This document shows positions 5,842 through 37,273 of a stretch of 64,000 nt of DNA, piece by piece. The DNA is from Marispirochaeta sp. (lineage in GTDB: Bacteria; Spirochaetota; Spirochaetia; JC444; Marispirochaetaceae). Below the pieces are notes generated by a model that was given only the letters and a program-made list of their open reading frames with translations, did not search any database and was not told where the DNA came from. How positions within the stretch are numbered: the first letter of the stretch is position 1; each line of letters begins with the position of its first letter. The stretch is from the NCBI GenBank assembly GCA_963676835.2, contig CAXXFF010000002.1, positions 1,216,001 to 1,280,000 on the forward strand, given 5' to 3'. The translations under genes were made by a program, and so were the position numbers.

Positions 5842-5845
5842 CTGA

Positions 5846-13329: not shown

Positions 13330-13401
13330 ACTGGCCTCGGATTCTGTTCCGGCTGTGATAGAAACATTGCCGGAGCTTTCACGGGAGTGTATATTTTTCC
13401 C

Positions 13402-14770: not shown

Positions 14771-17641
14771 ATGAACTCAAAAACCTTGTCTCTTTTCATT
14801 CTTATGGCGTGTACCGCCTTTTCTGCCTTTTCTGATACTTCCGATCCTCTTCTACGGCTGAATACGGAGATGCATACAGCGCCTATCAGGGCTATCGACA
14901 CAGATGCTGAATACCGCTTTGTTCTCACCGCAGGAGACGATAGAGTTGCACGCCTGTGGGATGCTGCTTCCGGCCGTCTTCTGAAGATTCTACGACCTTT
15001 TATTGGAGAAGGTAATGATGGACGGCTTTATTCCTGCGCCTTGTCTCCCGATGGGACTGAGGCTGTCGTGGGAGGATGGACCGGCCCTAGCGGGGATAAA
15101 TCCCTCTATTTTTTCAATACCGCTTCGGGTTCTCTAACCCATAGAATTGACGGCTTTAAAGATGTCATCAACTGTCTGAAATACTCTGATAACGGACGCT
15201 ATCTGGCTGCTGGTTTGGGTGGATCTAATGGCGTTTCTGTTATCTCTTTGCGGAACCACTCTGTTTACAAGCAGCTGGATGGATACAGCGCTCAGGTAAA
15301 GGGGTTATCGTTTTTCAGTGATGGGCGTCTGGCAGTTGTCTCCTATGATGGAGGAGTTCGTCTATACGACCGGCAGTTCGGGCTGGTGAAAAAGGTTCAG
15401 CTTGATAAAGAAAGCAGCCCCCGGGGTGTTGCGGTTTCTCCGGATGACAGCCGGATTGCCATTGCCTACTATAACAGCAGCAAGGTGGAAGTATACGACG
15501 GCATGAGTCTGAGACTTCTTTACACTGCAGACAGTGATGGAATAGATGAAAATGACGGCATGGTTAATGTTGCCTGGTCTTCTGACGGGCGCTATCTCTA
15601 TGCTGGCGGGCGCTACTCCAAATCCTTCGACGGAAAATGGTGGAGGGTTGTGCGCCGATGGGATAATCAGGGCCGTGGCATCTATGAAGATTTTCCCGGC
15701 AGCGGAAACACCATATGGGGACTGGTTTCCCTGAATAATGGGAACCTGCTGGTTGCAGGACACCGGCCCGACTGGGCACGTATAAATAACGCCGGCGAAC
15801 AGAGCCTTTACCGGGAGGGCATGATCCTCTCATTCCGACCGAAAAGCTTTGACAAGGATATGCTGTTAAACCCGGATGCCAGTAAAGTTACCTTTAAGCC
15901 AATGTCTGTCGATCCCATGACATTTTCCATTTCCGAACTCAGTCTGACGGAAGGCAGCTTTGAGGGGAATGCTTTCCGCTCCCAGGTGGGCGGAATAACG
16001 GTGACGGACTGGGATAACGGTGAAAATCCCCGCATAAACGGAACCCTTGTAGAAGGTTTCTCAAAATCTGAATTATGCCGAAGTGTCTCGGTTTCCCCCG
16101 ATGGAGATACGGTGATTCTCGGAACAGGCTGGTACTTGAGGGCCTATAATGCGGAAGCAGAATTGCTCTGGAAGATTCCTTCACCCGGTGAAAACTGGGC
16201 GGTAAACTGCTCTGCCGATGGAAAAACCGTGGTTGTTGGCCTTGGTGACGGGACTCTCCGCTGGTACAGACTTTCCGACGGCAAAGAGCTCTTAAATCTC
16301 TTTGTTCATTCTGACTGCAAACGCTGGGTCCTCTGGACACCCTCGGGTTACTATGCCTGTTCTCCTTCCGGAGAGGACCTGATCGGATGGCATATAAACC
16401 ATGGCCGGGACAGATCTGCTGATTTCTTCAGTGCATCCCGTTTTTCAGAGCGTTTCTACCGTCCGGATGTTGTTGCCCTTATGCTGGAAACTCTTGATGA
16501 GGACCAGGCCATAACCAGGGCTAACCGCCAGCGGAATATCCGGACAACCAACGCGAGCATTGCATCCATACTTCCTCCGGTTCTTGCTATACTTTCTCCC
16601 TCCGAAGGAGCAACTCACAGTTCTTCAACTATTCAGCTGCGCTATTCCGTACGAACTCCAAATAATGATCCTGTTCAGGAGGTGAGGGCAATGGTGAACG
16701 GCCGCCCGGTGGAAACTTCCCGGGGATTGAAGCTTGTCGCCTCCGGTTCCAGCGGAACTGAACAGTCTATAAATATTTCTCTTATGCCGGGAGAAAACTA
16801 CATCTCCCTCATGGCAAAGAATTCAACCTCATGGAGTGATCCTGCCACTGTTATGGTGAAGTACCAGGAACGGCAGCAATCATTTGTGGCAAAGCCGAAA
16901 CTCTATATTCTGGCAGTGGGGGTTTCGGATTACGCCAATCCTGATTACCGTCTTAATTATGCCGCCAAGGATGCCCGGGATTTTGCTGCAACCATGAAGG
17001 CCCAGGAGGGAGGGATTTATGAGGATGTTGAAATAAGGCTCCTCACCGACAAGGATGCAACCCAGGATAACGTTTTTGACGGTCTGGACTGGATACGGGG
17101 CCAGGCTACGGCTCGGGATGTTGCCATGATTTTTGTGGCGGGCCACGGGATTAATGATAACTCAGGCCGCCTCTATTACCTGACTCACGAGGCGGATGTG
17201 GACCGGCTGCGCCGGACCAGTGTTGCCGCCGATGAGTTTACCCAGACTATTCAATCCATTCCCGGCAAGGTTCTCTACTTTATGGACACCTGCCACTCCG
17301 GCGGGGTGAACATAGCCTCCCGCAGAGGGATCAATAGTGTAGATATGACGGGAATTATCAACGAGCTCTCTTCCGCCGAGAGCGGAGCGGTGGTTTTTGC
17401 CTCCTCTTCCGGAAAGCAGTACTCCCTGGAGGACGCAAGCTGGGGTAACGGTGCCTTTACCAAGGCCCTTATCGAGGGGCTCAAGGGTGGTGCGGACTAC
17501 ACCGGAAGCGGTAAAATAACTATCAATATGCTGGATCTGTATATTTCCGAACGGGTAAAGGAACTTACCCGGGGGCAGCAGACGCCGACCACTGCCAAAC
17601 CTGACACAGTGCCGGATTATCCGGTGGCGGTTAACGAATAG
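14771..17641 (+). CDS. Exported WD40 beta-propeller, Ig-like and caspase (peptidase C14) protein
   Basis: Signal peptide; WD40 repeats (TAGDDRVARLWD, SPDG); catalytic dyad FVAGHG and MDTCHSG. Confidence 0.88.
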   Translation: MNSKTLSLFILMACTAFSAFSDTSDPLLRLNTEMHTAPIRAIDTDAEYRFVLTAGDDRVARLWDAASGRLLKILRPFIGEGNDGRLYSCALSPDGTEAVVGGWTGPSGDKSLYFFNTASGSLTHRIDGFKDVINCLKYSDNGRYLAAGLGGSNGVSVISLRNHSVYKQLDGYSAQVKGLSFFSDGRLAVVSYDGGVRLYDRQFGLVKKVQLDKESSPRGVAVSPDDSRIAIAYYNSSKVEVYDGMSLRLLYTADSDGIDENDGMVNVAWSSDGRYLYAGGRYSKSFDGKWWRVVRRWDNQGRGIYEDFPGSGNTIWGLVSLNNGNLLVAGHRPDWARINNAGEQSLYREGMILSFRPKSFDKDMLLNPDASKVTFKPMSVDPMTFSISELSLTEGSFEGNAFRSQVGGITVTDWDNGENPRINGTLVEGFSKSELCRSVSVSPDGDTVILGTGWYLRAYNAEAELLWKIPSPGENWAVNCSADGKTVVVGLGDGTLRWYRLSDGKELLNLFVHSDCKRWVLWTPSGYYACSPSGEDLIGWHINHGRDRSADFFSASRFSERFYRPDVVALMLETLDEDQAITRANRQRNIRTTNASIASILPPVLAILSPSEGATHSSSTIQLRYSVRTPNNDPVQEVRAMVNGRPVETSRGLKLVASGSSGTEQSINISLMPGENYISLMAKNSTSWSDPATVMVKYQERQQSFVAKPKLYILAVGVSDYANPDYRLNYAAKDARDFAATMKAQEGGIYEDVEIRLLTDKDATQDNVFDGLDWIRGQATARDVAMIFVAGHGINDNSGRLYYLTHEADVDRLRRTSVAADEFTQTIQSIPGKVLYFMDTCHSGGVNIASRRGINSVDMTGIINELSSAESGAVVFASSSGKQYSLEDASWGNGAFTKALIEGLKGGADYTGSGKITINMLDLYISERVKELTRGQQTPTTAKPDTVPDYPVAVNE

Positions 17642-17675
17642 ATTTTAGAGGATTTTTTGTTTAGAAGGTGATGAC

Positions 17676-19211
17676 ATGCGAATTAAAAGTATTAGTGTAA
17701 GTATTCTTGTTCTGTTTGTTTCAGTACAGCTCTTTTCCCTGCCCCGCTGGGCGCGGGAATACGGGGCGGTAACCCCCTACAATACGGAGGAAAACGTTAC
17801 CGGATTCGGAACCTCCGAGTACGGTGATGACATCCCCATGGAGGCGGCAAAGCTCCGGGCCGCAGACGACCTGATCCGCAAGGTGAAGGTGGAGATAAAG
17901 AGTAATATAACCCTCACTGCCAATGATACTTCCGGCCGCGGATCTTCCGGGATGGATCTGGTGACCACCAGTACCAGTGTACTTCAGCTGGAAGGTATCG
18001 AATACGAGACGGAACGGGACGGCAGCACCTGGTATGCCCTTGCCCATATAAGCAGGGATTCCATTGCCCGCACATACAAGCAGAAGGCGAAGGAGACTGT
18101 AACGGATCTTGAGGCAGGTCTTTCCCAGTGTGATTCCGCTTTTAACGCCGGAAAAAACAGCGACGCCTATGACCTGGCAGTCAATCTTCTGCCCTTGTTT
18201 GACCGGCTTAAGGATGAAGCGGGCATCTACCGCTTTGCAGCGGCCGCATCCCTGCCTGCAGAAGTTTACGGACGCCGTATCAGCAACGACGGCAAGGCAG
18301 CCTATGAACTGGCACAGCTGAAAAGCCGCATCCGGGACCTTTCCGGTTCCGATGCCGCTGATCCGGCAGATGCCGTGCGGCGGATTGCCGCCATGTTCGC
18401 CGAACAGGGAATTTCGGCCTCGGACTTTACCGTCGCTCCTTTCCTCTTTCAGAATACCGACTTTTCCAGCCAGTTCGGCCAGTACATGGGCCAGCGCCTG
18501 CGGAGCGAACTGCTGAAGCGGCTGCCGCCGGTACGGGGCAAAGCTGCAGTTGCTGTACAGGGCCGCTACCTGGTGCGGGAGGGCAAGGTAGAGCTTTCTG
18601 TCTCCGCCCGCAGTGTGGACGGAAGCTCAAGCGGATCCGCCTGGGCGGAGTTTCCCGAAGTCAAACTGCCGGGAGATCTGTCGGTGGAACCCGGCAACTA
18701 CGCGGAAGCCATTCAGGACATGCTGCAGCTTGCCGACGGGGCCCTTGTTGACGGCGGCTTGAGTATCGAGGCCTGGACGAACCGCGGACGGGATGCGGAG
18801 AGCCTGGTTTTCGGCGACGGGGAGGAGCTTGAGCTCTATTTCCGGGTGAATCAGCCTGCCTTTATTCAGATTACCTATGCTCTTGCTACTGGAGAAAAGG
18901 TGCTGCTGGATGAGAGCTACTATATCGGCGATGACAAGGTAAACCGGGTGGTTAAATACCCTTATGCCTTTGAGGTATGTGCTCCCTATGGAGTTGAACG
19001 GATGATTATAAGTGCCTTCAGCAAGGAACCGCCGAAACCGAATGTAATAATCCGGCTTATTGACGGTGAGGAGTACGAGGTTTTTACCAGTGCAGCTGCT
19101 GCTGTCATGCAGACCCGGGGAGTTCACCGTGTCAGGGAAAAGGATGACGACGGCATGAAGACCGGAGAAATGATCCTGACCATGACCACCGTGCCGAAGC
19201 TGGCCGATTAA
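17676..19211 (+). CDS. Exported LPP20-like, FlgO-like and C-terminal DUF4384-like protein
   Basis: Signal peptide; LPRWA...TGFG; SQFGQYM; GEELELYFRVNQPAFI...APYGVE. Confidence 0.6.
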   Translation: MRIKSISVSILVLFVSVQLFSLPRWAREYGAVTPYNTEENVTGFGTSEYGDDIPMEAAKLRAADDLIRKVKVEIKSNITLTANDTSGRGSSGMDLVTTSTSVLQLEGIEYETERDGSTWYALAHISRDSIARTYKQKAKETVTDLEAGLSQCDSAFNAGKNSDAYDLAVNLLPLFDRLKDEAGIYRFAAAASLPAEVYGRRISNDGKAAYELAQLKSRIRDLSGSDAADPADAVRRIAAMFAEQGISASDFTVAPFLFQNTDFSSQFGQYMGQRLRSELLKRLPPVRGKAAVAVQGRYLVREGKVELSVSARSVDGSSSGSAWAEFPEVKLPGDLSVEPGNYAEAIQDMLQLADGALVDGGLSIEAWTNRGRDAESLVFGDGEELELYFRVNQPAFIQITYALATGEKVLLDESYYIGDDKVNRVVKYPYAFEVCAPYGVERMIISAFSKEPPKPNVIIRLIDGEEYEVFTSAAAAVMQTRGVHRVREKDDDGMKTGEMILTMTTVPKLAD

Positions 19212-19233
19212 TAAAGGTTCCGGATAGTTTCTC

Positions 19234-20505
19234 ATGTTCAAGCTGGATGGTCTTGGAAACATACGCAAGGTCCGTTGGACCGGTCTGCGTCCGGGGGTGG
19301 TGATCCTTTCGGGGGTCTCCATCAACGATCATCCCATCCCCGAGCTGACGGGCTTTCCGGTGCTTACCGAATCTTTAATTTCTGATCTCTCCTCCCGTTA
19401 CCAGTTTCTTGCCGGCCGGGAGGTTGTTGTTGCCGAGGCGGTCTATAACTATTCACCCTTTGAGTTTGCCGATCAGCTCCGGCATTCAGAAAAACAGAGA
19501 AACAGCTTCAACCGTCTGCGCCGGGATTTTGAAGAGACGAAAAAGATGGTCCTTCTCAATATGGGCCTGGACCTTCAGACGGATGTTCCCGTAATCGGGT
19601 CTGACCATGTTGACCGGGAGTACATGGTGAAGGATACCTACAACTCCTTTTCCTATCTTTATGGGCTTGGAGAGGACCTGGATGCGATTCCCTCCTTTTT
19701 TCACCGCATGGACTTGAGCCTTTCCCTGGCCGACCTGGTTACCAACCGGCTGCAGGAGAAATTCAATGTCCCCGATGACAGCGAGGTGGTGCTGCATCTG
19801 GTGGTTGATTTTTCAAGAAGCATGGACTCCATGGGCAAGCTCGATCTGGTGGTACAGACGGTTAATGCTTTTTACAGCTTTTACTCTGAGCTTCTTGCCA
19901 ATACCACCATAAAACTCTACACCTTTTCCGATGAGTGCCGGCCGGCCCGGTATCCGCTGCAGGAGGCAGGAGTCCGCCGGGGAAACACCGCCTACGGCTC
20001 TTTTATGAAAAAGGTTCTGCACCTTAAGGAAAAGGAAAAACGCAACAAGATAATCCTCTTTACCGACGGAGTGCCCACGGACCGCAGTGAAGCACTGAAG
20101 ATGGCGGAGCTGATAAAGAAGAACTGCCTGGACTATACCCAGATCATCTTCGACATTAAAGAGGAGAGGCGCACCGAGGTTGTCTATGCTGACGGTATGG
20201 TTGTGGACGCCGTTGACAATATGGTGGAAGAGCTGTCGGCGGGTATGTCGGAACGGGTCCTCTCCGACGAGGATCTGGACGCAAAAATGAAAGGGATCTT
20301 TGATGACTTTACCGAAGTAGCTGAAAGCTGCGGCGGTAATCAGATCATCCTTAAAATAAATGAACTGCTCAATCTGGTAACGGTGGAATGTTATGACCGC
20401 TATCTCGGTCTGTTAAGCCTCGCCACGAGAGCAGAAACTGTCCAGGTTGAAGAGACCCGGACTGATAAGCCGCAGGTAAAAAAATGGAGCCCCCCGCGGG
20501 TGTAA
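19234..20505 (+). CDS. vWA-domain protein, apparently cytoplasmic
   Basis: MIDAS VVDFSRSM and LFTDGVP; no signal peptide. Confidence 0.72.
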   Translation: MFKLDGLGNIRKVRWTGLRPGVVILSGVSINDHPIPELTGFPVLTESLISDLSSRYQFLAGREVVVAEAVYNYSPFEFADQLRHSEKQRNSFNRLRRDFEETKKMVLLNMGLDLQTDVPVIGSDHVDREYMVKDTYNSFSYLYGLGEDLDAIPSFFHRMDLSLSLADLVTNRLQEKFNVPDDSEVVLHLVVDFSRSMDSMGKLDLVVQTVNAFYSFYSELLANTTIKLYTFSDECRPARYPLQEAGVRRGNTAYGSFMKKVLHLKEKEKRNKIILFTDGVPTDRSEALKMAELIKKNCLDYTQIIFDIKEERRTEVVYADGMVVDAVDNMVEELSAGMSERVLSDEDLDAKMKGIFDDFTEVAESCGGNQIILKINELLNLVTVECYDRYLGLLSLATRAETVQVEETRTDKPQVKKWSPPRV

Positions 20506-20526
20506 AAAAACAGCAGGAGAAAAAAC

Positions 20527-21735
20527 ATGAATAAGCTGTTCACCATTGTGTTGTCCTTCGTAATATTCTTTTCTTTATCCTTAAGCATGTCCGCCCAGGA
20601 CTGTGTCAGCTTTGTGGAGGTTCAGGAGAAGACGCAGTTTGTGCTGGTTGTAGACCGCAGCGGCAGTATGGCCGGCGATCCCCTTCGGGATGCGAAGCAG
20701 GCGGTAATAAACTTTATTAACAGTATGCAGCCCGGAGATTCGGCGGCCCTGATTACCTTTGAAGATCAGGTGCATGTGAATCATAACTTTTCCTCCGACC
20801 GGGCAAGCCTGGTGCAGGCTGTACGGAATATTGAGACCGGCGGCAGGACCCGTTTTTACGATGCCGTGGCAGCTGCCGCCCGTATGCTGAAAGGGAAAAG
20901 CGGCCGTACGGCGATTCTTTTTCTTACCGATGGTAACGACAACGAAAGCAGTTTTTCCCTGAATAATATACGGCAGATGAATATCGGTGAACAGAATGTC
21001 GTTTACGGCATTGGGCTGGGGAATATCGACCATAATGGCATAAGCGCCCTGAGTACCGCCACCGGCGGACAGTACCGGGCAGCCCGGGGATCGGGTGAAC
21101 TCAGTTCTTTGTATGCTGACCTGCAGAAACTCTATTACACCGAATATCGGGATACCCGGAACAGCAGCGGAGGGTACACGGTTACCTCTCTTCCCGGCGG
21201 GAAAAGTGTCTACTTTGACGGAACCCTGGCCGGTACAACACCGCTGAATATGGACGGGATCAGTCCCGGCGAACATGTGGTGCAGGTGGAGTTTGAAAAC
21301 GGCCTGTGGGAATGCCGCAGTCAGTTAAAAGCGGGAACCAAGGGTTATATTACCGCCCGGTCTGCCGACCTTCCTGGTATTTTTTACATTGAATCATCTC
21401 CCCGGGGTGCGGCGGTTTTCATTGACGATACCTACGTGGGGCTCACTTCCATGATACCTTCACCTGTGGTGAATGGTTCCCGGGATCTTTCCGGACAGCT
21501 TCAGGTTAAGGATCTTCCCGAAGGTAAGCATACGGTAAAAATTATAGCCGCCCCGGATCTTGAACTCTCCGCAGCCCAGGAGATGGTGTTTGATTTCGAA
21601 ATGCGCAAGGCAAGCCGTTATGTGATTGTTAACGTGCTGGGAGGAAAGGCCCTGTTTGCCAACGGGGAACGGAAGCAGCGAAATATTGGCGATATGATTG
21701 AGAATGCCTTCAGCGACCCTATGTTTAATGACTAG
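20527..21735 (+). CDS. Exported vWA plus PEGA-domain protein
   Basis: Signal peptide; DRSGSM, T and LTDG MIDAS residues; PEGA-like SLPGGKSVYFDG...GTTP and SSPRGAAVFID. Confidence 0.85.
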   Translation: MNKLFTIVLSFVIFFSLSLSMSAQDCVSFVEVQEKTQFVLVVDRSGSMAGDPLRDAKQAVINFINSMQPGDSAALITFEDQVHVNHNFSSDRASLVQAVRNIETGGRTRFYDAVAAAARMLKGKSGRTAILFLTDGNDNESSFSLNNIRQMNIGEQNVVYGIGLGNIDHNGISALSTATGGQYRAARGSGELSSLYADLQKLYYTEYRDTRNSSGGYTVTSLPGGKSVYFDGTLAGTTPLNMDGISPGEHVVQVEFENGLWECRSQLKAGTKGYITARSADLPGIFYIESSPRGAAVFIDDTYVGLTSMIPSPVVNGSRDLSGQLQVKDLPEGKHTVKIIAAPDLELSAAQEMVFDFEMRKASRYVIVNVLGGKALFANGERKQRNIGDMIENAFSDPMFND

Positions 21736-21781
21736 TCCAAAAATTAGCTTAATGACTGATCGGATTGGAAGAGGTAATGTC

Positions 21782-23461
21782 ATGACACGAATAAAGATAG
21801 TCGTACTGCTGCTGATGCTTGTTCCGGCAGCACTTACCGCCCAGCAGGCCCAGGGGCTGGACCCGGTCCCCGGGGCACTGAATATCTCCCTGCCCCAGGC
21901 GAATCCCCGGGGCATTGTCTCCGCAGCCGGAGCTGCTCCCGGAGACGGTGAGACTGCACAGGCCCTGCCTGCAAAGGTTGACCTGCAGCAGTTTCTGCCG
22001 CCGGTGAAAAACCAGGGGCAGATCGGCAGTTGCGCCGCCTGGGCCAGCGTCTATTACGCCAAGACAATACAGGAGAACCAGGAGCGCCGCTGGGGTGCGG
22101 ATAATGCGGACCACCAGTACAGCCCTCTTTTTACCTACAACCAGATTACCAAAGGGGTAAATGAGGGCACCGCTATTCAGGATCATATGGTGCTGATGGA
22201 AAAGCTCGGGGCTGCCCCGTTCAGCAGTTTTCCCTACGCGGATAACCTCAATGTCCAGCCCGATGCTAAGGTACTGAAGGCGGCGGAAAAGTATCCGGCT
22301 TCGTCTCACAAGAACCTGGATACCTACGATTACACAACAAAAACCTGGTCGGTAAAGCTTGAGTCCGTTAAAGCTACCCTTGCCGAGGGGCTGCCTGTTG
22401 TGGGGGGATTTCAGGTCTATGAAAACCTGCACAGCTACCGGGGCGGTATTTACAACAAGGTAGCCGGGGCTGCTTCCGGCGGTCATGCGATGTGCATTAT
22501 CGGCTATGACGATTCTAAAAATGCTTTGCACCTGGTTAATTCCTGGGGAACATCCTGGGGAGACCAGGGCTTTCTCTGGATGGACTACGATCTGTTTGAA
22601 GAGCTCTGCACCTACGGCTGCGTGGTTATGTATGACACGGTTATTCCCGTACCTGATAGCATTCAGGCTCCGGTGAATCTTGAAGGCAGCAGGGGGGTAT
22701 ATAAAAACCGCATAGAGCTCTCCTGGACTGCCGTGGATGGGGCGGAACTCTATATCGTCTACCGGGTGGATAACGCCGAGGGAGTTCTGAAAGAGGTCGG
22801 CCGGACCGATGAACCCGCCTGGATCGAAGAGAATCTTCCCCCCGGGGTGACCTATGTCTATGCCGTAAAGGCTGCGAAGAAAAAGGGCTCCGGTCTGCTT
22901 GAGAGCGATTTCAGTGAGATAGCCGAAGGATGGACAGTGGAAGAGAAGTTTCCTCCGGGAATCCCCTCTAATCTTACCTTCGGATTTTTTATGGGAAACC
23001 CCGTTCTGGTTTGGCTGCCCGTGGAAGAGGCTGAAGGCTACAACGTCTACCGCTGGTCCGATGCTGAAGAGGCCTTTATGCTGTTAGGCAGTTCAAAGGA
23101 TTCGGCCTTTATGGATTCCGGGTATAAAAATCTTAATGAAGCAGGAATTATCTACTATATCGTGCAGGCCTATAACGCCAACGGCGAGGGCTACCCCACG
23201 GAGAGCCTTGCGGTGCTGAAGGAGATAGCCGAAGAGAAGCCCGAGGAAGAGATTATCGAAACCGATACCCTGAAGGATGATATTCCCGCAGAAAAGAAAG
23301 AGGCCTTCGACGGTGATTTCTACCGCACCGATTACTTTGATTACGAGTACACCGTGAAACAGTTCCGGGAATACTACGAGAAGGAGATGCAGGCCTTCCG
23401 GGATTTTCAGAAGAACGAAGCGGACAGCTTTGAGGCCTGGAAGCGGCAGCACAGCCGGTAG
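21782..23461 (+). CDS. Exported papain-like (C1) cysteine protease with fibronectin-III repeats
   Basis: Signal peptide; QGQIGSCAAWA (Cys), GGHAMCIIGYDD (His), NSWG (Asn); two Fn3-like repeats; acidic helical tail. Confidence 0.9.
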   Translation: MTRIKIVVLLLMLVPAALTAQQAQGLDPVPGALNISLPQANPRGIVSAAGAAPGDGETAQALPAKVDLQQFLPPVKNQGQIGSCAAWASVYYAKTIQENQERRWGADNADHQYSPLFTYNQITKGVNEGTAIQDHMVLMEKLGAAPFSSFPYADNLNVQPDAKVLKAAEKYPASSHKNLDTYDYTTKTWSVKLESVKATLAEGLPVVGGFQVYENLHSYRGGIYNKVAGAASGGHAMCIIGYDDSKNALHLVNSWGTSWGDQGFLWMDYDLFEELCTYGCVVMYDTVIPVPDSIQAPVNLEGSRGVYKNRIELSWTAVDGAELYIVYRVDNAEGVLKEVGRTDEPAWIEENLPPGVTYVYAVKAAKKKGSGLLESDFSEIAEGWTVEEKFPPGIPSNLTFGFFMGNPVLVWLPVEEAEGYNVYRWSDAEEAFMLLGSSKDSAFMDSGYKNLNEAGIIYYIVQAYNANGEGYPTESLAVLKEIAEEKPEEEIIETDTLKDDIPAEKKEAFDGDFYRTDYFDYEYTVKQFREYYEKEMQAFRDFQKNEADSFEAWKRQHSR

Positions 23462-23506
23462 TAAAAAACGTTTAATAGAATCAGCTGAAAACTAACGGAG
23501 TACATC

Positions 23507-24178
23507 ATGAAAAAACTGATTACAATTTTACTGACATTCACCACTCTCATATCCCTGTCTGCTCTCCCTGAGCAGGCAGATATACCTGACTGGTATCTTA
23601 ATCCCCCGGAACCCGAAAATAAAATCGTCGGACTTGGCGCGCATAAAGCGGATAACCCCGGCTCCTCGGTTATTCTCTCCCTGGTTCACAGCCTTGGGCA
23701 GATATCAACTATTGCTGCGGCAAAATATGAGAATGCAGAAACCACCTACGATAATGAAGAAGGGCTTCCGGATGTCAAGTTTGAAGAGGCTGTTCTCAAA
23801 GGTAAGGCTATGGTCAGTATAGGGACGTGCATTATACATGCGGTTTACACTGATTATCTCCAGACTACAAGCAATGAGGAAGGTGAACAGACTATCTCTT
23901 TTGCAGAGTTAATTGAGAAAGTCCTTCTGCCCTATAAAGGAGGATATGTCTGCCTGACCAGTACGGTGCAGGACAGTGCGGTGGATGATGATGCAGATCA
24001 TAAACAGCACAGTAATATTGAGCCCGATTTTTCTCCCCGGGATTTTTACTATCAGCTTATGGCCATTCTCGAAGAGGCCGGCTGTGAGATTGAGAAGTAT
24101 TTTGCCGAGGATGGTACGGTGTATACCAAGGCTGTAATAAGCTGGGATGCGGTGAAGGCTCTGGCAGAAGAGAGTTGA
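23507..24178 (+). CDS. Exported LPP20-like protein
   Basis: Signal peptide; PDWYLNPP...GLG; homologous to the C-terminal half of 31827-33185. Confidence 0.6.
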   Translation: MKKLITILLTFTTLISLSALPEQADIPDWYLNPPEPENKIVGLGAHKADNPGSSVILSLVHSLGQISTIAAAKYENAETTYDNEEGLPDVKFEEAVLKGKAMVSIGTCIIHAVYTDYLQTTSNEEGEQTISFAELIEKVLLPYKGGYVCLTSTVQDSAVDDDADHKQHSNIEPDFSPRDFYYQLMAILEEAGCEIEKYFAEDGTVYTKAVISWDAVKALAEES

Positions 24179-24287
24179 GGAATTATCGAATAGTCTATGC
24201 TCTGAGTGTAAAAAGTAAAAGTGTGAATACAGTTAATGGCTTAACAACTCGAACACTAAAAAAGTTGTAAAACTGGTGAGGATTTAA

Positions 24288-27689: not shown

Positions 27690-27725
27690 TCTTATCTGGG
27701 TGAAGCGAAGAGAGAAGATAAAAAC

Positions 27726-30035: not shown

Positions 30036-30045
30036 GGAATAAGAT

Positions 30046-31803
30046 ATGAAACGAACATTTTTTGCAGCACTGTTTTTAACTATTCTAATGGCCGTAACGG
30101 CTTTTGCACAGAACAAGACGGCCCTGCTGATCGCTAACGGGGACTATCAAAACTTCTCCTCCCTGGCAAACCCGGTGCCCGAGGCCCGGCAGCTCAGAAG
30201 CGCTCTGCAGCGTCTTGGATTTCAGGTAACCCTCCTGACGGATGCTGATAAAGAGGAGATGATTATCGGCCTGCGGAACTTTCAGCGTTCCGTTAAAAGC
30301 CGGGGCGGTGTCGCCTTTTTTCACTACGGCGGCCATGCGGTGCAGGTGGGGGGTAAGAACTACCTTATTCCTGCAAATGCAGATATTCCCGATGAGGATT
30401 ACGTAAGCCTCCGCGCCATGGATGCGGAGGAGATTATGGTCAGCCTTGAGCATTCCGGAAGCGACAGCAATATCGTTATTCTCGACTCCTGCCGCAACAA
30501 TCCGCTGCCAGCAGGTTCGGGCAGAAGCGCGTCCCGCGGTCTGGCGGTTGTCGGGAAAGAGCCGCCCAATACGGTGATCGTGTACTCTGCAAAATCGGGA
30601 CAGGTTGCCCGGGACGGTGTATTTACCCCGGCTCTTACCAGGGCTCTCACCTCTCCGGGATTAAGCATTCAGGAGATCCTGATGCAGACCCGCCAGAAGG
30701 TGTATGAACAGACCAAGGGTGCCCAGATTCCCGGTGAGTACAACCAGCTTTTTGAACCGGTATACCTCGCCGGCCGCGGTAGTTCAGGCGGCGGAAACAA
30801 TATAAGCTTCGGCGCGGTAACTGTGGAACCCGGTTCGCTCACCATAAATGTAGTTGAAGCGGGCACCCTGGAAATCAACGGACAGTCCGTGCAGATACCC
30901 TCCGGAGGCAGCATTCCGGTGAATGGACTTGATCCGGGGAGTTACATTCTTTCTATGCAGTATGGAAATGGACTTCGGGAAACTAAGACTGTTGAGGTTG
31001 AGAGCGGGATCAGTAAGAGTATTGCCTTCAGTTATGTGGTTAGAACGTCTACGGTTAGCCGCATGTCTTTAGACGATAGCTTTGTGCTGGTAAAAGCTGG
31101 AAGTTTCACCATGGGGTCACCATCCAATGAACCTGACAGGAAGGATAATGAAGCACAACATCAGGTAACCCTGACCCGGGATTTTTACATTAGTAAATAC
31201 GAAGTAACTCAGGGATTGTGGAAAGAGGTAATGGGAAATAATCCTTCCGAAGTAAGTACAGGTATCGATGTTAATTATCCAGTTAATGAAATCAGCTGGA
31301 TTGAAGCGGTGGATTTTTGCAATAAACTCAGTCGCCGACAAGGCCTCAATCCCGTTTATAGTGGTTCGGGAGATAGTATCCGCTGTGACTTCAATGCCAA
31401 CGGCTACCGGCTGCCCACGGAAGCAGAGTGGGAGTTCGCGGCGCGTGGTGCTCAGTCGTTAGAGAGCTATCAGATTTATGCGGGCTCGAATAGTTTGGGT
31501 AATGTTGGCTGGTTTTACAACAACAGTGGCGGTAAAAACCATGCGGTAGGGCAGAAGTCACTTAATCCCCTGGGGCTTTATGATATGAGTGGGAATGTAT
31601 TTGAATGGTGCTGGGACTGGTATGGCAATTACAGTGGAACGGTAATAAATCCAACGGGAGACGAATCAGGATCTTACCGAGTAACTCGTGGGGGCAGCTG
31701 GCTTCAACGCGATAGGTTCAACCGTTCGGCTTTTCGAGACTTTCGTAGTCCCTATGCGAGTGCTGATGATGTTGGCTTTCGCCTTGTTCGCACTGCAAAT
31801 TAG
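30046..31803 (+). CDS. Exported caspase (C14), PEGA-like and FGE-sulfatase (SUMF1/CLec) protein
   Basis: Signal peptide; FHYGGHA and LDSCR; FTMGS, RLPTEAEWEFAARG, GLYDMSGNVFEWC, RGGSW and GFRLVR. Confidence 0.9.
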   Translation: MKRTFFAALFLTILMAVTAFAQNKTALLIANGDYQNFSSLANPVPEARQLRSALQRLGFQVTLLTDADKEEMIIGLRNFQRSVKSRGGVAFFHYGGHAVQVGGKNYLIPANADIPDEDYVSLRAMDAEEIMVSLEHSGSDSNIVILDSCRNNPLPAGSGRSASRGLAVVGKEPPNTVIVYSAKSGQVARDGVFTPALTRALTSPGLSIQEILMQTRQKVYEQTKGAQIPGEYNQLFEPVYLAGRGSSGGGNNISFGAVTVEPGSLTINVVEAGTLEINGQSVQIPSGGSIPVNGLDPGSYILSMQYGNGLRETKTVEVESGISKSIAFSYVVRTSTVSRMSLDDSFVLVKAGSFTMGSPSNEPDRKDNEAQHQVTLTRDFYISKYEVTQGLWKEVMGNNPSEVSTGIDVNYPVNEISWIEAVDFCNKLSRRQGLNPVYSGSGDSIRCDFNANGYRLPTEAEWEFAARGAQSLESYQIYAGSNSLGNVGWFYNNSGGKNHAVGQKSLNPLGLYDMSGNVFEWCWDWYGNYSGTVINPTGDESGSYRVTRGGSWLQRDRFNRSAFRDFRSPYASADDVGFRLVRTAN

Positions 31804-31826
31804 TAACCGGATTAAAGGAATAAGCC

Positions 31827-33185
31827 ATGAAAAAATCAATAACCATTTTCCTAATGCTTCTAAGCCTCCTTTCCCTCACCGCCGAAAACCGCTACGCCCT
31901 GATTATCGGTAACAGCGAATACGCTGATTTCGGCAGTCTTCAGGAGCAGCCGGTAAACGATGCGGCTGACATCTCCGCCTCTTTAAAGCAGCTTGGCTTC
32001 GAGGTAACCACCCTGCAGAACGCGAGCCTGCGGGATATGAAGAACGCCACCCGGGTTTTCCGCAGCAGGCTCCATGATGACGCCGAAGCGGTGGGCCTCT
32101 TCTACTATGCCGGCCACGGCCTGCAGCATGACGGGGAAAACTACCTGATACCCTCCGATGCGGTAATCCCCGACGCGGTGGAGCTGGAGTACGAAGGCTA
32201 TAAAGTCAGCTATCTCATGGACCAGATAAGCGCCGCCGGCAATCAGCTGAATATGGTGATCCTCGATGCCTGCCGTGATTTTCCTGCGGCCTGGACCCGG
32301 TCTGTAAGCCGGGGACTGACGGTGGTGGGAAACCGGCCGGCAGGCAGCCTGATAATGTTCGCCACCAGCGAAGGTGATGTGGCGGATAACGGCTCCGGCA
32401 GAAACGGCCTGTTTACCTCCGTTCTGCTGGAACACCTGCAGACCACGGGTATTGATGTTGAAGAGGTTTTTGAACGGACCGCGGCAGGGGTACAGGAAAA
32501 GAGCAATGGAAAACAGATTCCTGAAGTGTACGACAAGTTCACCGGGGATGTGTATCTTGCGGGAATAGTGAATCAACAGGAAAAAGATGTTCCCGGTTGG
32601 TTTAACAATCCTCCCTGGTTTGATGATGCCATTAGCGGTGTAGGCAAGCACAACTCGGATGAGTTGGGGGCTGCCATTCTTTTATCCCTCGTCCATAGCC
32701 TGTGCGATATTTCCAACCTGATGAATGCGAAGGTTGACTCGAAGATCACGGACTATACCACTGAAGAAGATGGTGAAATACAATTTGTGGAAGCAATTAC
32801 AAAAATGACCTCTGAAACCAGCCTCGGGTCGATCAACATTCAGGCTCAGGAAACAGATTATTTTCAGGAAGCAAGTTCATTGAAGGGTACTCAGACTCTT
32901 TCAATTAAAGAAAAAACAGCACAGGTTGTATTCAGCAGCAGTGGCACGGTTTACCAGATACTCAGTGTATCTCAGGACTCGGAAGAGAAGGGTGAGCCCA
33001 AACATGTTGATGCCTTTGAGGTTAATCCCGAACTGTCTCCCCGGGACTGCTACAAGCTGCTGTTGGCTCTTGTTGAAGATGCCGGGGGAGAAGTGCAGAA
33101 ATATATAGCCGGAGACAAGACGGTGTATGCAATGGTAACTGTGGACAAGAACAGTCTGACAGTGCCGGAACCTGAAACCCCTTAA
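31827..33185 (+). CDS. Exported caspase (C14) plus LPP20-like protein
   Basis: Signal peptide; ALIIGN, YYAGHG and LDACR; C-terminal half is paralogous to 23507-24178. Confidence 0.87.
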   Translation: MKKSITIFLMLLSLLSLTAENRYALIIGNSEYADFGSLQEQPVNDAADISASLKQLGFEVTTLQNASLRDMKNATRVFRSRLHDDAEAVGLFYYAGHGLQHDGENYLIPSDAVIPDAVELEYEGYKVSYLMDQISAAGNQLNMVILDACRDFPAAWTRSVSRGLTVVGNRPAGSLIMFATSEGDVADNGSGRNGLFTSVLLEHLQTTGIDVEEVFERTAAGVQEKSNGKQIPEVYDKFTGDVYLAGIVNQQEKDVPGWFNNPPWFDDAISGVGKHNSDELGAAILLSLVHSLCDISNLMNAKVDSKITDYTTEEDGEIQFVEAITKMTSETSLGSINIQAQETDYFQEASSLKGTQTLSIKEKTAQVVFSSSGTVYQILSVSQDSEEKGEPKHVDAFEVNPELSPRDCYKLLLALVEDAGGEVQKYIAGDKTVYAMVTVDKNSLTVPEPETP

Positions 33186-34234
33186 TTAACCGAATAACTG
33201 AGCACCGGCCAGTAGGACCGGCGGCCTTTGTATTCGATATAAACTGAAATCTTCAAGGTTCCTCTTTGGGGTGTAATGGTACCGGAAAAAATATCCCCGT
33301 TTTTTTTCAAATAAGAGAATGACTTGTTGTTCCCTACAAAAGCTGCCTGGTCAACTCCGGGAACCCGCAGCTGAAACTCAATCTCTTCTCCGGACTGCAG
33401 GGTTTTCTGTATGGGCGCATTCACTATTTCAATTTCAGCATCGTACTGATCATAACTCTCGGGAATCCCCATCCCCTGACTTAAGCTTGCCTCCATTACT
33501 GCTTCTTCAACACCCAGAGCATAGAGGCTTTCAAAGAAAAAGGATTTATAATATTTCCGTACAACATAATCCGTCATGGAGATTGGCTCTGCAGTCAGCT
33601 GCCACTCTTCCTCTTTCGGCAGGTGGGTCCACAGAAAAAGTTCCGGAGAACAGTCAAACCAGAAGGCGCTGAAATCCCATACAAAAGACCTGTTCGAAAC
33701 ATGACCGGCTCCCCAGGTTGAATCCATCAGGCGCCAGCTGCCGTCCACAAGCACAGCATTCCAGGCATGGTTGGTGCGGCTGAATCTGCTGCGGTCCCTG
33801 TAACCGTAGCCTTTCGCGTAGCCCGATATCAGCCGGGAATCAAGACCAAGGCCCCGTGCCAGGCTGTTAAAGAGTTCCGCGTATCCCTGGCATACGGATT
33901 TACCGGTTCTGAAAACTCCGCCCGGATTTGTAACGGCACGTCTGCCGGAAAAGTATGCAGATGCATCGTAGGCGATGTTTGAAGTCATCCAGATGTAAAC
34001 CGCCCGGGCTTTTTCCATGTCGGTTTCAGCCAGGTTTGAAAGCTGAGTGATAGTCTCTTCAATACTCTCCGCTTCGTGAAGCTCCCGGACGGCGCTGTCG
34101 AGATCAATGAAGGAGAGGTCAGATCCTGAAGTATCAGCATCCGATACCGGAGAATCTGCAAGCAGGAAAGGAAACAGGGATATTGATAAAAAGACTGCAA
34201 TGCATATCAGTTTTGTATGGATTGTTTTATACAT
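33182..34234 (-). CDS. Exported transglutaminase-like (Cyk3/KY-type) protein
   Basis: Triad VCQGYA, HAWNAV and DSTWG; HLP...WQL motif; hydrophobic N-terminus. Confidence 0.88.
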   Translation of the reverse strand: MYKTIHTKLICIAVFLSISLFPFLLADSPVSDADTSGSDLSFIDLDSAVRELHEAESIEETITQLSNLAETDMEKARAVYIWMTSNIAYDASAYFSGRRAVTNPGGVFRTGKSVCQGYAELFNSLARGLGLDSRLISGYAKGYGYRDRSRFSRTNHAWNAVLVDGSWRLMDSTWGAGHVSNRSFVWDFSAFWFDCSPELFLWTHLPKEEEWQLTAEPISMTDYVVRKYYKSFFFESLYALGVEEAVMEASLSQGMGIPESYDQYDAEIEIVNAPIQKTLQSGEEIEFQLRVPGVDQAAFVGNNKSFSYLKKNGDIFSGTITPQRGTLKISVYIEYKGRRSYWPVLSYSVN

Positions 34235-34278
34235 TTCGGATCCTTAATATTCGAACATGGAGTAATTATATAATAGTG

Positions 34279-34701
34279 CTATAGAAAAAGTGTTTTCAGT
34301 CCCGGAAATCGGGAAAAATCCCGGTCGGTAGTGACCCACTCGCAGCCGTGTTCAATAGCCAGAGCAGCAAAGTACGCATCCGGAATCAGGTTCCCCTTTG
34401 CCTGAGCTTCCGTACACAGCTTGCTGAAAATATTCCAGTGCCGTTGTTCCGGACGGACTGTAACGGCATTCGGCCGTGAACGTATTGCTTCAATAAAGTT
34501 GAGGGCGTTCTCTATGGAATCAGGGTTTTTGAATATCTTCGGATGGGTAACAATCCGCAGGAATCCGCTCAGTGCCAGTTCGCAGATTCCGAAATCCGAC
34601 GGTGAGTTTATGGTTTCCTGAAGCCATTCGTAAACCGGCTTATGGCGTTCGGTGTCGGTTCTGAATGCGTAAACATAGATGTTTACATCACACAGGACCA
34701 T
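34279..34701 (-). CDS. vapC: VapC PIN-domain toxin
   Basis: LCDVNIYVYA, FLRIVTHP, DAYFAALAIEHG and TTDRDFSRFPGL. Confidence 0.9.
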   Translation of the reverse strand: MVLCDVNIYVYAFRTDTERHKPVYEWLQETINSPSDFGICELALSGFLRIVTHPKIFKNPDSIENALNFIEAIRSRPNAVTVRPEQRHWNIFSKLCTEAQAKGNLIPDAYFAALAIEHGCEWVTTDRDFSRFPGLKTLFL

Positions 34702-34942
34702 TGTTCTTTTCCATTATGTCATAGAGGTCGGCTGAGTTATCCAGATCGATTCCCCCTGCAACTCCTCCGGTCTTCTCCGAGACTGTCAGGGTAATCGGTT
34801 CAAGTTCTTCCGGAGCAGGATAGCGCAGGAATTTTTCCCGCAATGCCTGCTCAATAATCTCTCTTAAGGGTTTATGTTCCTTCAGCGCCAGGTCTTTTGC
34901 TTTCTGAAGAAGAGCATCATCCAGATCCATTGTGGTTCTCAT
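34688..34942 (-). CDS. vapB: VapB-type antitoxin
   Basis: MRTTMDLDDALLQKAK RHH-like N-terminus and GIDLDNS tail; overlaps vapC. Confidence 0.82.
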   Translation of the reverse strand: MRTTMDLDDALLQKAKDLALKEHKPLREIIEQALREKFLRYPAPEELEPITLTVSEKTGGVAGGIDLDNSADLYDIMEKNNGPV

Positions 34943-34949
34943 GCATATA

Positions 34950-34978
34950 AGCATACTGCCGGGGCATAAATATGTCAA
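34950..34978 (-). promoter_or_regulatory. Sigma70-type promoter of vapBC, probably giving a leaderless transcript
   Basis: Minus strand TTGACA-17 nt-TATGCT, then 7 nt to the ATG at 34942; near-palindrome ATGCATATAAGCAT over the start. Confidence 0.65.
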
Positions 34979-35025
34979 TTTTGGGGAATCGAGCCGGTAA
35001 AAGCTATTCTGTTCACTGAATTGCC

Positions 35026-35529
35026 TTAAGCAACCTTGAGAAACAGTGCGGTAACAACCCCGATCTGCCCTATCCAGAAGAGAAACATCCATTTGATGTT
35101 GTTGGCAGCAGACTGGTGCATCTCAACTCTTAAGGTACCTATGCTTGTGTTCATTTCTCCCCGCAGACTTGAGACCTCTTCAGTAAGTTTCTTATCAAAC
35201 CGCTGTTCCAATGATGCAAGATCAACCCTGATGGCTGAGACCTCTTCCACCAGCTTCTTCTCAAACCGGCCTTCAGATTCGGTAAGCTCAACCCGGATGG
35301 CAGAAGTTTCTTTCTCTAGCTTCTTCTCAAACCGGCCTTCAGATCCTGCAAGATCAACCCTGATGGGAGATATCTCTTCCGCCAACTTTCTTTCAAACCT
35401 GAGTCCTGCAGTTTGGATAACAGAATTTTCCGTCTCTTTCTCCTGCTCGTTGAGCACGGCAATCAGCGCGTCGGAGCCTTCGTCTCCGAGCTTCTCCCGT
35501 AATGGTTTCGGTATGGATATTAATGGCAT
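35026..35529 (-). CDS. LA_3696/DUF1640-like coiled-coil protein with a C-terminal membrane anchor
   Basis: MPLISIPKPLREKLGDEG...; 22-aa repeats; IKWMFLFWIGQIG tail. Confidence 0.8.
   Translation of the reverse strand: MPLISIPKPLREKLGDEGSDALIAVLNEQEKETENSVIQTAGLRFERKLAEEISPIRVDLAGSEGRFEKKLEKETSAIRVELTESEGRFEKKLVEEVSAIRVDLASLEQRFDKKLTEEVSSLRGEMNTSIGTLRVEMHQSAANNIKWMFLFWIGQIGVVTALFLKVA
35170..35400 (-). repeat. 66 bp (22 aa) tandem repeat, about 3.5 copies
   Basis: AGCTTCTTCTCAAACCGGCCTTCAGAT recurs at 35252 and 35318; protein units EISPIRVDLAGSEGRFEKKLEK, ETSAIRVELTESEGRFEKKLVE and EVSAIRVDLASLEQRFDKKLTE. Confidence 0.8.
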
Positions 35530-35725
35530 TCTCTGCTTCCTTACCATACTGATACCGTGTAAAGTATATTCTGATTTCATTCAGCGGTCAAATCGGGCTC
35601 TTTTGATCTGGGTTCTATCAGTAGTTTCCTTGTTTCAAAAGCCCCGATGGCCTAAAATAGGAGAGAAATATATACCTGCATCTTTATAGCTGTGACTGAA
35701 AAAGTGTACTTGCAAGGGGGATCCC

Positions 35726-37273
35726 ATGCGCCTGAAGATTTTTCTACTGCCCATACTGATTTTCATAGCCGGTCTGCCGGTTTTTTCCCAGAACAAAACT
35801 GCCCTCCTGATAGCCAACGGTAACTACAAAAACTTCTCCTCCCTGGCCAACCCGGTAACCGAGGCCTCACAGCTTAAGGCCGCTCTGCAGAATTTGGGGT
35901 TTCAGGTAACCCTGATCACCAATGCCGGCAGGGAGCAGATGCTGGACGGTCTTATGGACTTTGAGCGTTCCGTGAAGCAGCGCGGTGGCATCGCCTTCTT
36001 TCATTACGGCGGACATGCCGTACAGGTGGCGGGCAGCAATTACCTTATTCCGGCAAATGCCGATATCCCCGATGAACGGCGGGTCAGTACCCGGGCGGTG
36101 GACGCCGAAGAGATCATGGCCACCCTGGAGGCCTCCGGGAGCGATACCAATATTGTAATCCTGGACTCCTGCCGCAATAATCCTCTGCCGTCAGGCAGCG
36201 GACGCAGCGCCAGCCGCGGGCTGGCGGTTGCCGGCAAGAAACCGCCCAACTCCATTATCGTCTACTCCGCCGAGTCGGGTACCGTCGCCCGGGACGGCGT
36301 GTTTACTCCAGCCCTTATCCAGGCACTCTCCATGACGGAAAAGAGCTTTCAGGAGATTCTGATGCAGACCCGCCAGCGGGTTTATAACCTGACCAATGGA
36401 GCCCAGATTCCCGGAGCCTATGACCAGCTGTTTGCACCGGTCTATCTTGCGGGGATACCTTCCGGAGAAAACACAGGCAGGATAATTCCGGATGGAAACA
36501 GCAGTCCCCCTGCTGCTACGGCAAGCCGGCCGCAGGTATCCGAGGACTTTGTGCTGGTAAAAGCGGGAAGCTTTACTATGGGCTCACCGTCTTCTGAAGT
36601 TAACAGGGGTGCTGATGAAACTCAGCACCGGGTTACCCTGACCCGAGATTTTTACATGGGTAAATACGAAGTGACCCAGGGGGTGTGGCAGGAGGTGATG
36701 GGGAGTAATCCCTCTGATACGTCAAGGGGGATCGGGTCCGGTAATCCTGTTAACAAGGTAAGCTGGTACGACGCGGTGGAATTCTGCAACAAGCTGAGCC
36801 TGCGTGAAGGATTTACCCCTGCCTACAGCGGTTCAGGAGACAATATCCTCTGTAACTTTAATGCAAGCGGCTACCGTCTTCCCCTGGAGGCGGAGTGGGA
36901 ATACGCCGCCCGGGGCGGAGTGCGGGCGGGAGGATATAATATTTATGGGGGAAGCGACAGTATCGGAAGTGTCGCGTGGTCTGGAGTCAATAGCGGGAGA
37001 ATCACCCATCCTGTGGGGCAGAAACAGGCCAATGAGCTGGGGCTGTACGACATGAGCGGTAATGTGTGGGAGTGGTGCTGGGACAGGTATGGTAGTTACA
37101 GCGGAAATGCAACTGATCCAGGCGGTAGTGCCTCGGACTCCTTACGCGTGTTGCGCGGGGGTAGCTGGAGCGACAACCGCGTCGATTACTGCCGTTCGGC
37201 AAATCGGGCCAGCATCCTTCCAGGTGCCCATTACAGCAATAATGGCTTCCGCCTTGTCCGAACGGCGCAGTAG
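35726..37273 (+). CDS. Exported caspase (C14) plus FGE-sulfatase (SUMF1/CLec) protein
   Basis: Signal peptide; FHYGGHA and LDSCR; FGE motifs; caspase domain closely paralogous to 30046-31803. Confidence 0.9.
   Translation: MRLKIFLLPILIFIAGLPVFSQNKTALLIANGNYKNFSSLANPVTEASQLKAALQNLGFQVTLITNAGREQMLDGLMDFERSVKQRGGIAFFHYGGHAVQVAGSNYLIPANADIPDERRVSTRAVDAEEIMATLEASGSDTNIVILDSCRNNPLPSGSGRSASRGLAVAGKKPPNSIIVYSAESGTVARDGVFTPALIQALSMTEKSFQEILMQTRQRVYNLTNGAQIPGAYDQLFAPVYLAGIPSGENTGRIIPDGNSSPPAATASRPQVSEDFVLVKAGSFTMGSPSSEVNRGADETQHRVTLTRDFYMGKYEVTQGVWQEVMGSNPSDTSRGIGSGNPVNKVSWYDAVEFCNKLSLREGFTPAYSGSGDNILCNFNASGYRLPLEAEWEYAARGGVRAGGYNIYGGSDSIGSVAWSGVNSGRITHPVGQKQANELGLYDMSGNVWEWCWDRYGSYSGNATDPGGSASDSLRVLRGGSWSDNRVDYCRSANRASILPGAHYSNNGFRLVRTAQ

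Follow-up and report, generated by a model that had tools for sequence, protein, structure and literature searches.

Which proteins do exported bacterial caspases cut, and what is the role of the DUF4384 proteins encoded beside some of them? Many bacterial caspase homologues have likely signal peptides and no known substrate (PMC3501461). We addressed both questions at a gene cluster of Marispirochaeta sp. that encodes five predicted exported caspases of family C14, a DUF4384 protein and a papain-family protease. The cluster occupies positions 14654..37273, mostly on the plus strand, of a window of 64,000 nucleotides (the whole stretch of DNA that was analysed; G000:C2:1216001-1280000, contig CAXXFF010000002.1 of assembly GCA_963676835.2). 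Seven of its proteins share a short motif, here called the tag, in which Arg-Gly is followed by a hydrophobic residue. An earlier reading of the sequence alone had interpreted this motif as a caspase cleavage code of the locus. The explanation that we favour, and hold to be somewhat probable, is that the tag represents the P1-P1'-P2' positions of a site that is recognised, and most likely cut, by a subfamily of exported Arg-specific C14 proteases of the spirochaete envelope in their own catalytic linkers, in a loop of their immunoglobulin-like (Ig) domains and in a DUF4384 partner.

Nine Arg-Gly motifs in the caspase cluster

Domain labels were taken from a Pfam profile scan of 27 window proteins. 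A hydropathy scan, rather than a trained predictor, was used to recognise N-terminal hydrophobic stretches, which were found in the five caspases, the DUF4384 protein, a vWA-PEGA protein, the papain and a small protein; a Sel1-repeat protein has none and the first vWA protein no clear one. The open reading frame (ORF) of caspase 1 opens at 14654 and that of the papain at 21698, and the likely start codons at 14771 and 21782 were used. The proteins that carry the nine motifs, and the motifs themselves, are the following.

14771..17641, plus strand: caspase 1, with signal peptide, two WD40 propellers, Ig domain and C14 domain (DTCH type)
16715..16729, plus strand: TSRGL, Ig-domain loop of caspase 1 (R690)
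17318..17332, plus strand: SRRGI, catalytic linker of caspase 1 (R891; Cys880)
17676..19211, plus strand: LPP20-like / DUF4384 protein, predicted exported, candidate substrate or regulator
19110..19124, plus strand: QTRGV, DUF4384 tail (R481), about 17 residues upstream of the last conserved segment
21782..23461, plus strand: papain-family (C1) protease with FN3 domains, predicted exported
21902..21916, plus strand: NPRGI, papain pro-region, with variable Arg
24288..27689, plus strand: caspase 2, with lipobox-like N-terminus, propeller region, Ig domain and C14 domain
26763..26777, plus strand: STRGL, Ig domain of caspase 2 (R828)
27369..27383, plus strand: MSRGF, catalytic linker of caspase 2 (R1030; Cys1014)
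30046..31803, plus strand: caspase 3, with signal peptide, C14 domain (DSCR) and FGE-like domain
30529..30543, plus strand: ASRGL, linker of caspase 3 (R164; Cys149)
31827..33185, plus strand: caspase 4, with signal peptide, C14 domain (DACR) and a C-terminal domain outside Pfam
32304..32318, plus strand: VSRGL, linker of caspase 4 (R162; Cys149)
35726..37273, plus strand: caspase 5, with signal peptide, C14 domain and FGE-like domain
36209..36223, plus strand: ASRGL, linker of caspase 5 (R164; Cys149)

ORF translation found all nine motifs where the sequence-only reading had placed them, with the Arg codons at 16721, 17324, 19116, 21908, 26769, 27375, 30535, 32310 and 36215, at most 6 nucleotides away. 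Its domain labels held as well. The five caspases match PF00656 with 57.5-120.3 bits (cut-off 21.4) and the papain matches PF00112 with 69.1 bits (cut-off 20.7). The DUF4384 label stays below the cut-off of PF14326 (17.7 bits versus 27), but it is backed by an Atlas feature match of 0.93 to a DUF4384 cluster and by profile-detected relatives of the window protein that exceed the cut-off.

In the 7,436 amino acids of the cluster the pattern [STPR]RG[ILVF] occurs 14 times versus 1.9 expected (P 1e-8) and the looser pattern RG[ILVF] 17 times versus 8.4 (P 0.006); with the caspases removed the stricter pattern is found 5 times versus 0.8 (P 0.0016). The expected counts come from a crude set of ORFs of this genome, and the pattern was picked after the sites had been seen. 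Moreover, the nine sites amount to about five independent contexts, because the caspase copies are paralogous, and for these three reasons conservation is the better test than enrichment. Eight of the nine motifs fall in three conserved contexts, namely the catalytic linkers, the Ig loop and the DUF4384 tail. Five further matches, which the sequence-only reading had not listed, lie in the WD40 part of caspase 1, at the FN3 start of the papain (where the family consensus has Lys at the Arg position), in the FGE domain of caspase 5 and, twice, in the Sel1 protein.

The tag in the catalytic linkers

The His-Cys dyad is intact in all five caspases (AGHG or GGHA and D[TSA]C), and caspases 3-5 have the motif DxCR; the C14 domains of caspases 3 and 5 are 72% identical. 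The Pfam C14 matches extend to positions 221-233 of 233, and a model of caspase 1 has strands and helices past the linker. For caspase 4, the one caspase tested in this way, MALT1 is the best-scoring relative of solved structure (E 2.5e-13). Acidic residues of caspase 4 are aligned with three MALT1 pocket positions, which we take to be those forming the S1 pocket for Arg. The equivalent acidic residues D714, D819 and E867 (model numbering) are invariant in 55 caspase-1 relatives; those of caspases 2, 3 and 5 were assigned by motif. We infer that the five caspases are Arg-specific.

The tag had been described as lying about 10-15 residues past the catalytic Cys of every caspase, and the Arg is indeed located 11, 16, 15, 13 and 15 residues past it in caspases 1 to 5. 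To follow its conservation we used 119 homologues of caspase 1 (the best 120 of 2,439 matches minus the query) and, drawn from the same best 120, a non-redundant set of 53 homologues with less than 80% mutual identity. In this non-redundant set the linker reads R[GA] in 50/53 and RG in 41/53 homologues. In 17/17 close DxCR-type domains the Arg-Gly-Leu and an upstream Arg are invariant. A tblastn search of fetched caspase loci yielded 33 C14 regions, 21 of them with RG in the linker; the 12 regions without RG are among the most distant, and the tag therefore marks a subfamily.

A comparison within single chains was provided by 48 homologues with the architecture WD40-(Ig-C14)x2. In the terminal unit His and Cys are present in 48/48 and linker R[GA] in 46/48, whereas the internal unit has the catalytic His replaced in 35/48 and retains linker R[GA] in 1/48. 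Although the number of evolutionary events is small, the linker tag still appears to go together with the intact enzyme. In the internal unit of most members of this family (P0107-P0156), Gln replaces the catalytic His and a second Cys stands where the RG linker would be, and the terminal unit is intact; these proteins resemble a tandem of pseudo-enzyme and enzyme.

The tag in the Ig loop and in the DUF4384 tail

Outside the linkers the tag of the Ig loop is kept as RG in 43/53 caspase-1 homologues and as Arg in 48/53, and the three positions before it are variable (top residue in at most 19/53). In the tandem proteins RG is present in 42/48 first and 22/48 second Ig units, and at least one copy occurs in 47/48 chains; three of the six first units without RG are alignments that stop short of the Ig domain. 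Since 26/48 terminal Ig copies are without the tag, the Ig fold does not need it. The tandem chain nevertheless seems to need at least one.

We also asked whether the two sites of caspase 1 are buried, which would have spoken against cleavage. In an AlphaFold2 model computed from 55 sequences, with a mean predicted local distance difference test score (pLDDT) of 89, the only segments with pLDDT below 50 are the Ig loop 630-640 (R690), the interdomain link and the catalytic linker 828-834 (R891). Both copies thus lie in low-confidence loops of an otherwise confident model. The listed Foldseek matches of this model are propeller-containing structures and were uninformative for the protease part.

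The third conserved context is the DUF4384 tail. RG is found at this site in 18/19 close homologues and in 147/149 representatives with a median identity of 26% (those reaching the C-terminus among the best 150 of 3,678 matches). The other three RG dipeptides of the protein are kept in 3, 20 and 38 of the 149. The tail consensus [KR]-T-R-G-[LFMI]-K-[KR] is followed by a gap-rich loop and then by the last conserved segment. A lack of conservation outside the caspase linker, which the sequence-only reading had named as grounds for refuting it, does not apply to the Ig-loop and DUF4384 copies, which are kept between variable neighbours; it does apply to the papain copy, as described below. Second motifs were seen in the DUF4384 partners of four loci (L085, L087, L089 and L095), which have [TS]RG-hydrophobic near residue 100 besides the tail motif.

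DUF4384 and C14 domains also occur together. Among 400 genomes sampled from the phylum, C14 domains are present in each of the 12 whose match extends into the DUF4384 region, versus 13/33 of those matched at the N-terminal part only and 214/400 overall (Fisher P 3e-4); the listed rows were sorted by hand, kin are non-independent, and at least two of the 33 do carry DUF4384 genes. At the level of loci, a stand-alone DUF4384 gene adjoins an RG-linker caspase in 8/19 fetched caspase loci, with RG in the tail in seven of these and RA in one. A sequence search of the PDB with the DUF4384 domain gave no match better than E 0.59. The predicted complex of two caspase-4 protease domains with the DUF4384 domain scored 0.00 in two runs in which the controls did not fold, and it is counted neither for nor against binding.

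Cut site, bait or unrelated element

The intact dyads, the predicted export signals, the conserved tags and the co-location with DUF4384 genes can be read from the sequence, and the proposed cleavage is built on them. Each caspase would be a single-chain protease that is switched on, by itself or by a sister caspase, through a cut at the tag 11-16 residues past the catalytic Cys. The WD40-Ig-caspases would be the sensing members, with a second tag in the Ig loop, and the LPP20-DUF4384 protein would be a dedicated partner that is cut in the loop preceding its last conserved segment. The cuts in the Ig and DUF4384 domains would lie inside a folded domain and free no propeptide. They would therefore more likely act by switching the conformation, by creating a new Gly-hydrophobic-basic N-terminus or by destabilising the protein, as in Csx30.

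A number of observations weigh against cleavage at the tag. Conservation would fit a bait or docking loop as well as a cut site, and low pLDDT indicates an unresolved loop and is no proof of exposure. The Ig-loop RG is missing from 10/53 homologues, and 13 internal units of the tandem proteins retain His and are without the tag. In 11 of the 19 caspase loci the fetched stretch contains no stand-alone DUF4384 gene; several of the 19 had been chosen for known adjacency or are close kin. Many DUF4384-RG genes have no caspase nearby, and fusions of C1 proteases with DUF4384 are mostly without RG in the tail. MALT1 is without Arg-Gly at the aligned linker position. The counts also overstate independence, because there were few tandem duplication events, the genomes are related and loci were picked for visible adjacency. 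Finally, a strict tag is perhaps not needed for cutting, since one bacterial Arg-caspase, that of type IV Thoeris, is promiscuous and needs P1 Arg only (10.1101/2024.10.24.620036).

The alternative that survives best is that the loops act as bait or tether, a possibility that we consider unlikely. The Ig and DUF4384 loops would mimic the caspase linker and occupy the active site as pseudo-substrates, with cutting slow or incidental; the Ig loop would keep the enzyme inactive, in cis or within a dimer, and the DUF4384 protein would serve as an inhibitor or holder anchored in the envelope. The tags of both loops (RG-L/I/F/V, then often a basic residue) do resemble the DxCR-type linker, one Ig tag per chain is retained whichever unit bears it, and a cut at either tag releases no domain. 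There is also a published precedent in PCaspase and the adjacent inhibitor PCi, which is itself cut (10.1101/2023.06.23.546230). Such a pseudo-substrate role is opposed by the caspase-1 model, which leaves the Ig loop unresolved (as judged from pLDDT rather than from coordinates), and by the many DUF4384-RG genes that lie far from any caspase gene. In the genomes with these distant genes, most C14 linkers carry a small residue after Arg or Lys.

It is distinctly improbable that the tag has nothing to do with these caspases, that is, that it is an inherited structural or ligand element, or is cut by another Arg-specific protease, and that the likeness reflects convergence on a common tetrapeptide. 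RG[ILVF] is present in 1,163/3,778 crude ORFs of the genome, one of the five or so independent contexts fails, and no locus-specific co-variation of flanking residues is evident by eye. However, linker R[GA] is lost along with the catalytic His, the Ig fold can do without the tag as described above, the tags are conserved within variable, gap-rich loops, and DUF4384 and C14 co-occur.

The papain propeptide

The sequence-only reading had made the papain the downstream effector of a cascade in which the caspases cut its propeptide at NPR/G. The catalytic residues C84, H235 and N253 are invariant in 23 orthologues. At the Arg position of NPRG, the 22 orthologues and the query have Arg in 8, Lys in 7, His in 3, Ala in 3, Asn in 1 and Trp in 1 sequence, so that 18/23 are basic and 5/23 are Ala, Asn or Trp; the flanking Pro and Gly are invariant in 23/23. 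This is the signature of a putative structural Pro-x-Gly element and the opposite of the pattern at the other sites. The motif had also been placed just before the mature-type segment LPAKVDL, but the actual distance is 19 residues, and a cut at NPR/G would leave 18 propeptide residues. Self-processing is common among papain-family enzymes. The papain was also modelled with AlphaFold2, and pLDDT is below 50 over residues 15-48 and most of 76-177.

Arg is found in both genomes that have the papain gene inside a caspase cluster. Among the eight orthologue loci, however, only 1/8 lies within such a cluster, although four of the others (L004-L007) are short contigs. At one orthologue locus a C14 gene without tag is located about 5 kb away, and at L007 the papain has Trp at the Arg position beside a DUF4384 gene. 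Because Arg is kept in 8/23, Pro and Gly in 23/23, and 1/8 loci lies in a caspase cluster, the effector role is weak for this gene.

In a sister subfamily the C1 protease is joined to a DUF4384 domain, and 10/12 sequences examined have Arg-[DGEA] shortly upstream of the mature start. In two loci such a papain directly follows a DxCR caspase (L090:7486-8991 and L094:7154-8578, both on the minus strand) and has [ST]-R-[DE] before the mature start. These two proteins are better candidates for activation by a caspase than the window papain. The Arg of the sister family aligns about five residues downstream of NPRG, to an Ala in the window papain, as far as a one-sequence profile in a weakly aligned region can be followed. 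A step from caspase to papain is plausible elsewhere and poorly supported here; the window papain is probably a co-located exported protease that is not activated via NPRG, and the papain step for this gene is the part of the first interpretation to drop. The full cascade is thus very unlikely, the least probable of the explanations considered.

A wider reading

Beyond this locus, we put forward tentatively, and as rather unlikely in its full extent, that exported C14 proteases across many bacteria form an undescribed signalling network of the envelope, with a transplantable Arg-Gly loop as its basis. WD40-Ig-caspases would be sensors that activate paracaspase-like relays, and Ig folds, including DUF4384, would serve as protease-operated switches. 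A cut would expose a Gly-hydrophobic-basic N-terminus or loosen the final strand, which could then undergo strand exchange with a partner, and in the sister loci the propeptide Arg site would couple the network to the C1-DUF4384 papains. If true, this would give DUF4384 a function and many exported bacterial caspases a first substrate rule.

Related loci and remaining genes of the cluster

Three unlinked predicted exported caspases are encoded elsewhere in the genome (G000:C2:1126362-1129097, C3:399247-402459 and C1:883032-885350). Two of them have the tag, which one of these bears in the Ig loop as well as in the linker. The third is without it and lies downstream of two genes that resemble a sigma/anti-sigma pair by sequence. 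Since the tag is shared by other members of the family, including unlinked caspases of this genome, the term code is overstated for this locus, and the tag looks family-wide. A locus-specific code was also considered and rejected: at one locus (L084) both partners have SRGLS, at the others they differ, and there is no general co-variation by eye, for which no statistic was calculated. A linked CHASE2 or CHAT receptor was rejected as well, since the two CHASE2 genes and the one CHAT gene of the genome are far from the cluster and without clear tag.

The remaining genes of the cluster are as follows.

19234..20505, plus strand: vWA-like protein, without clear signal peptide and without listed motif
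20527..21735, plus strand: vWA-PEGA protein, predicted exported
23507..24178, plus strand: small protein, predicted exported, homologue of the C-terminal part of caspase 4, without RG
27726..30035, plus strand: Sel1-repeat protein, without signal peptide, with two looser RG matches
33182..34234, minus strand: transglutaminase-like protein, convergent; the orthologous locus has one too

The small protein (23507-24178) and the caspase-4 C-terminal domain (32511-33185) share 35% identity, and neither has a Pfam match. Toxin-antitoxin-type genes are interspersed in the cluster: a nucleotidyltransferase-like gene (12856-13329), a PIN/antitoxin pair (34279-35092) and a HEPN/nucleotidyltransferase pair (37314-38088) flank and interrupt it, as in an insertion hotspot. 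A promoter and terminator scan of 12500-32000 gave matches at chance level only.

In the closest related locus (L001) most orthologues are 74-91% identical. The genes for the small exported protein, caspase 2 and the Sel1 protein (window 23507-30035) are missing from the corresponding place in L001 and therefore look like a later insertion; the GC content of caspase 2 is about 0.40 at 24-26 kb versus 0.50 around it. The L001 orthologues of caspases 1, 3 and 5 (2857-5872, 11722-13525 and 16812-18278) are broken by stops or frameshifts, by decay or assembly error. The papain is present in only 2/7 genomes of the family and three complete genomes are without any C14 match, which indicates that the cluster is accessory. 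At another locus the FN3 segment of a C14 protein (L091:5772-7541, minus strand) matches the corresponding region of the window papain family.

Comparison with known systems

The characterised bacterial caspases of the cited literature act in defence or cell death. We compared the cluster with known systems; general background was taken from PMC7935541, PMC5756287, PMC8283722, PMC8195603, PMC6207715, PMC3501461 and 10.1101/2025.01.12.632604. Known defence modules (hydrolase, EACC1, PCaspase, Craspase) were rejected, with NF047832 scores of 42-84 versus a cut-off of 140. PADLOC reported the generic caspase model only. No effector family was found among 13 proteins scanned, and the scan of 27 window proteins revealed neither a CRISPR nor a sigma gene.

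The closest likeness in the cut sites is offered by LcCaspase of Lysobacter capsici, a bacterial caspase-like protease that cuts the neighbour-encoded LcHydrolase at two putative sites, in both of which Arg-Gly is conserved (10.1101/2025.11.14.688446). That reaction yields a toxic hydrolase and is tied to defence sensors, whereas in the present cluster the proteins have signal peptides, no such effector was found and the tag is also present in the proteases themselves.

MALT1 is cytoplasmic and is activated by dimerisation in the CBM complex. It combines a Death domain and Ig domains around the protease, whereas the cluster proteins have signal peptides and FGE-like or unclassified C-terminal domains. 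Besides being the best solved relative of caspase 4, it is like caspases 3-5 in the DxCR motif, and it takes Arg at P1 (PMC3304489, PMC9463181, PMC6207715). It prefers Leu-Val-Ser-Arg and cuts CYLD after Phe-Met-Ser-Arg (PMC3304489), sites that resemble SVSR/G and AMSR/G of the cluster. Motif scanning by itself is a poor predictor of MALT1 substrates (PMC9463181), and the same caution applies to the tag.

The orthocaspase MaOC1 of Microcystis is a prokaryotic caspase homologue that autoactivates after Arg219 (reviewed in PMC7475262), and its preference for Arg-Arg is similar to the RRG linker of caspase 1 (PMC7475262, PMC5756287). Unlike the cluster caspases, which extend past the p20 part, it is described as p20-only and without extra domains. 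In the Haliangium SAVED-CHAT / PCaspase / PCi system an upstream protease activates PCaspase, for which the adjacent inhibitor is also a substrate (10.1101/2023.06.23.546230). This prokaryotic cascade shares with the proposed scheme a cleavage-activated C14 zymogen and an adjacent protein that is both cut and inhibitory; its trigger is cA3 from type III CRISPR and its outcome is abortive infection, whereas the cluster has no SAVED or CRISPR context.

The nearest parallel for the DUF4384 partner is Csx30. Csx29 (TPR-CHAT) is a caspase-fold protease that cuts a flexible loop inside the folded C-terminal domain of Csx30, whose integrity is required for binding (PMC10028731), and one group of Csx30 C-terminal domains is DUF4384 (10.1101/2022.08.17.504292). 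The differences are that Csx29 belongs to CHAT and not to C14, that the mapped cut is Met427/Lys428, and that the type III-E CRISPR system is RNA-triggered and coupled to a sigma factor.

A literature search, with most subscription papers outside its scope, found no paper on an Arg-Gly tag common to exported C14 linkers, Ig loops and DUF4384. Taken together, each ingredient of the proposed scheme has a precedent in these systems; what is new is their combination in an exported system with a near-invariant site in DUF4384. For the substrates of exported bacterial caspases and the role of DUF4384, the tag would supply exact residues and exact N-termini: it is nearly invariant in the DUF4384 subfamily, tracks catalytic competence in the caspase linker and recurs in an Ig loop.

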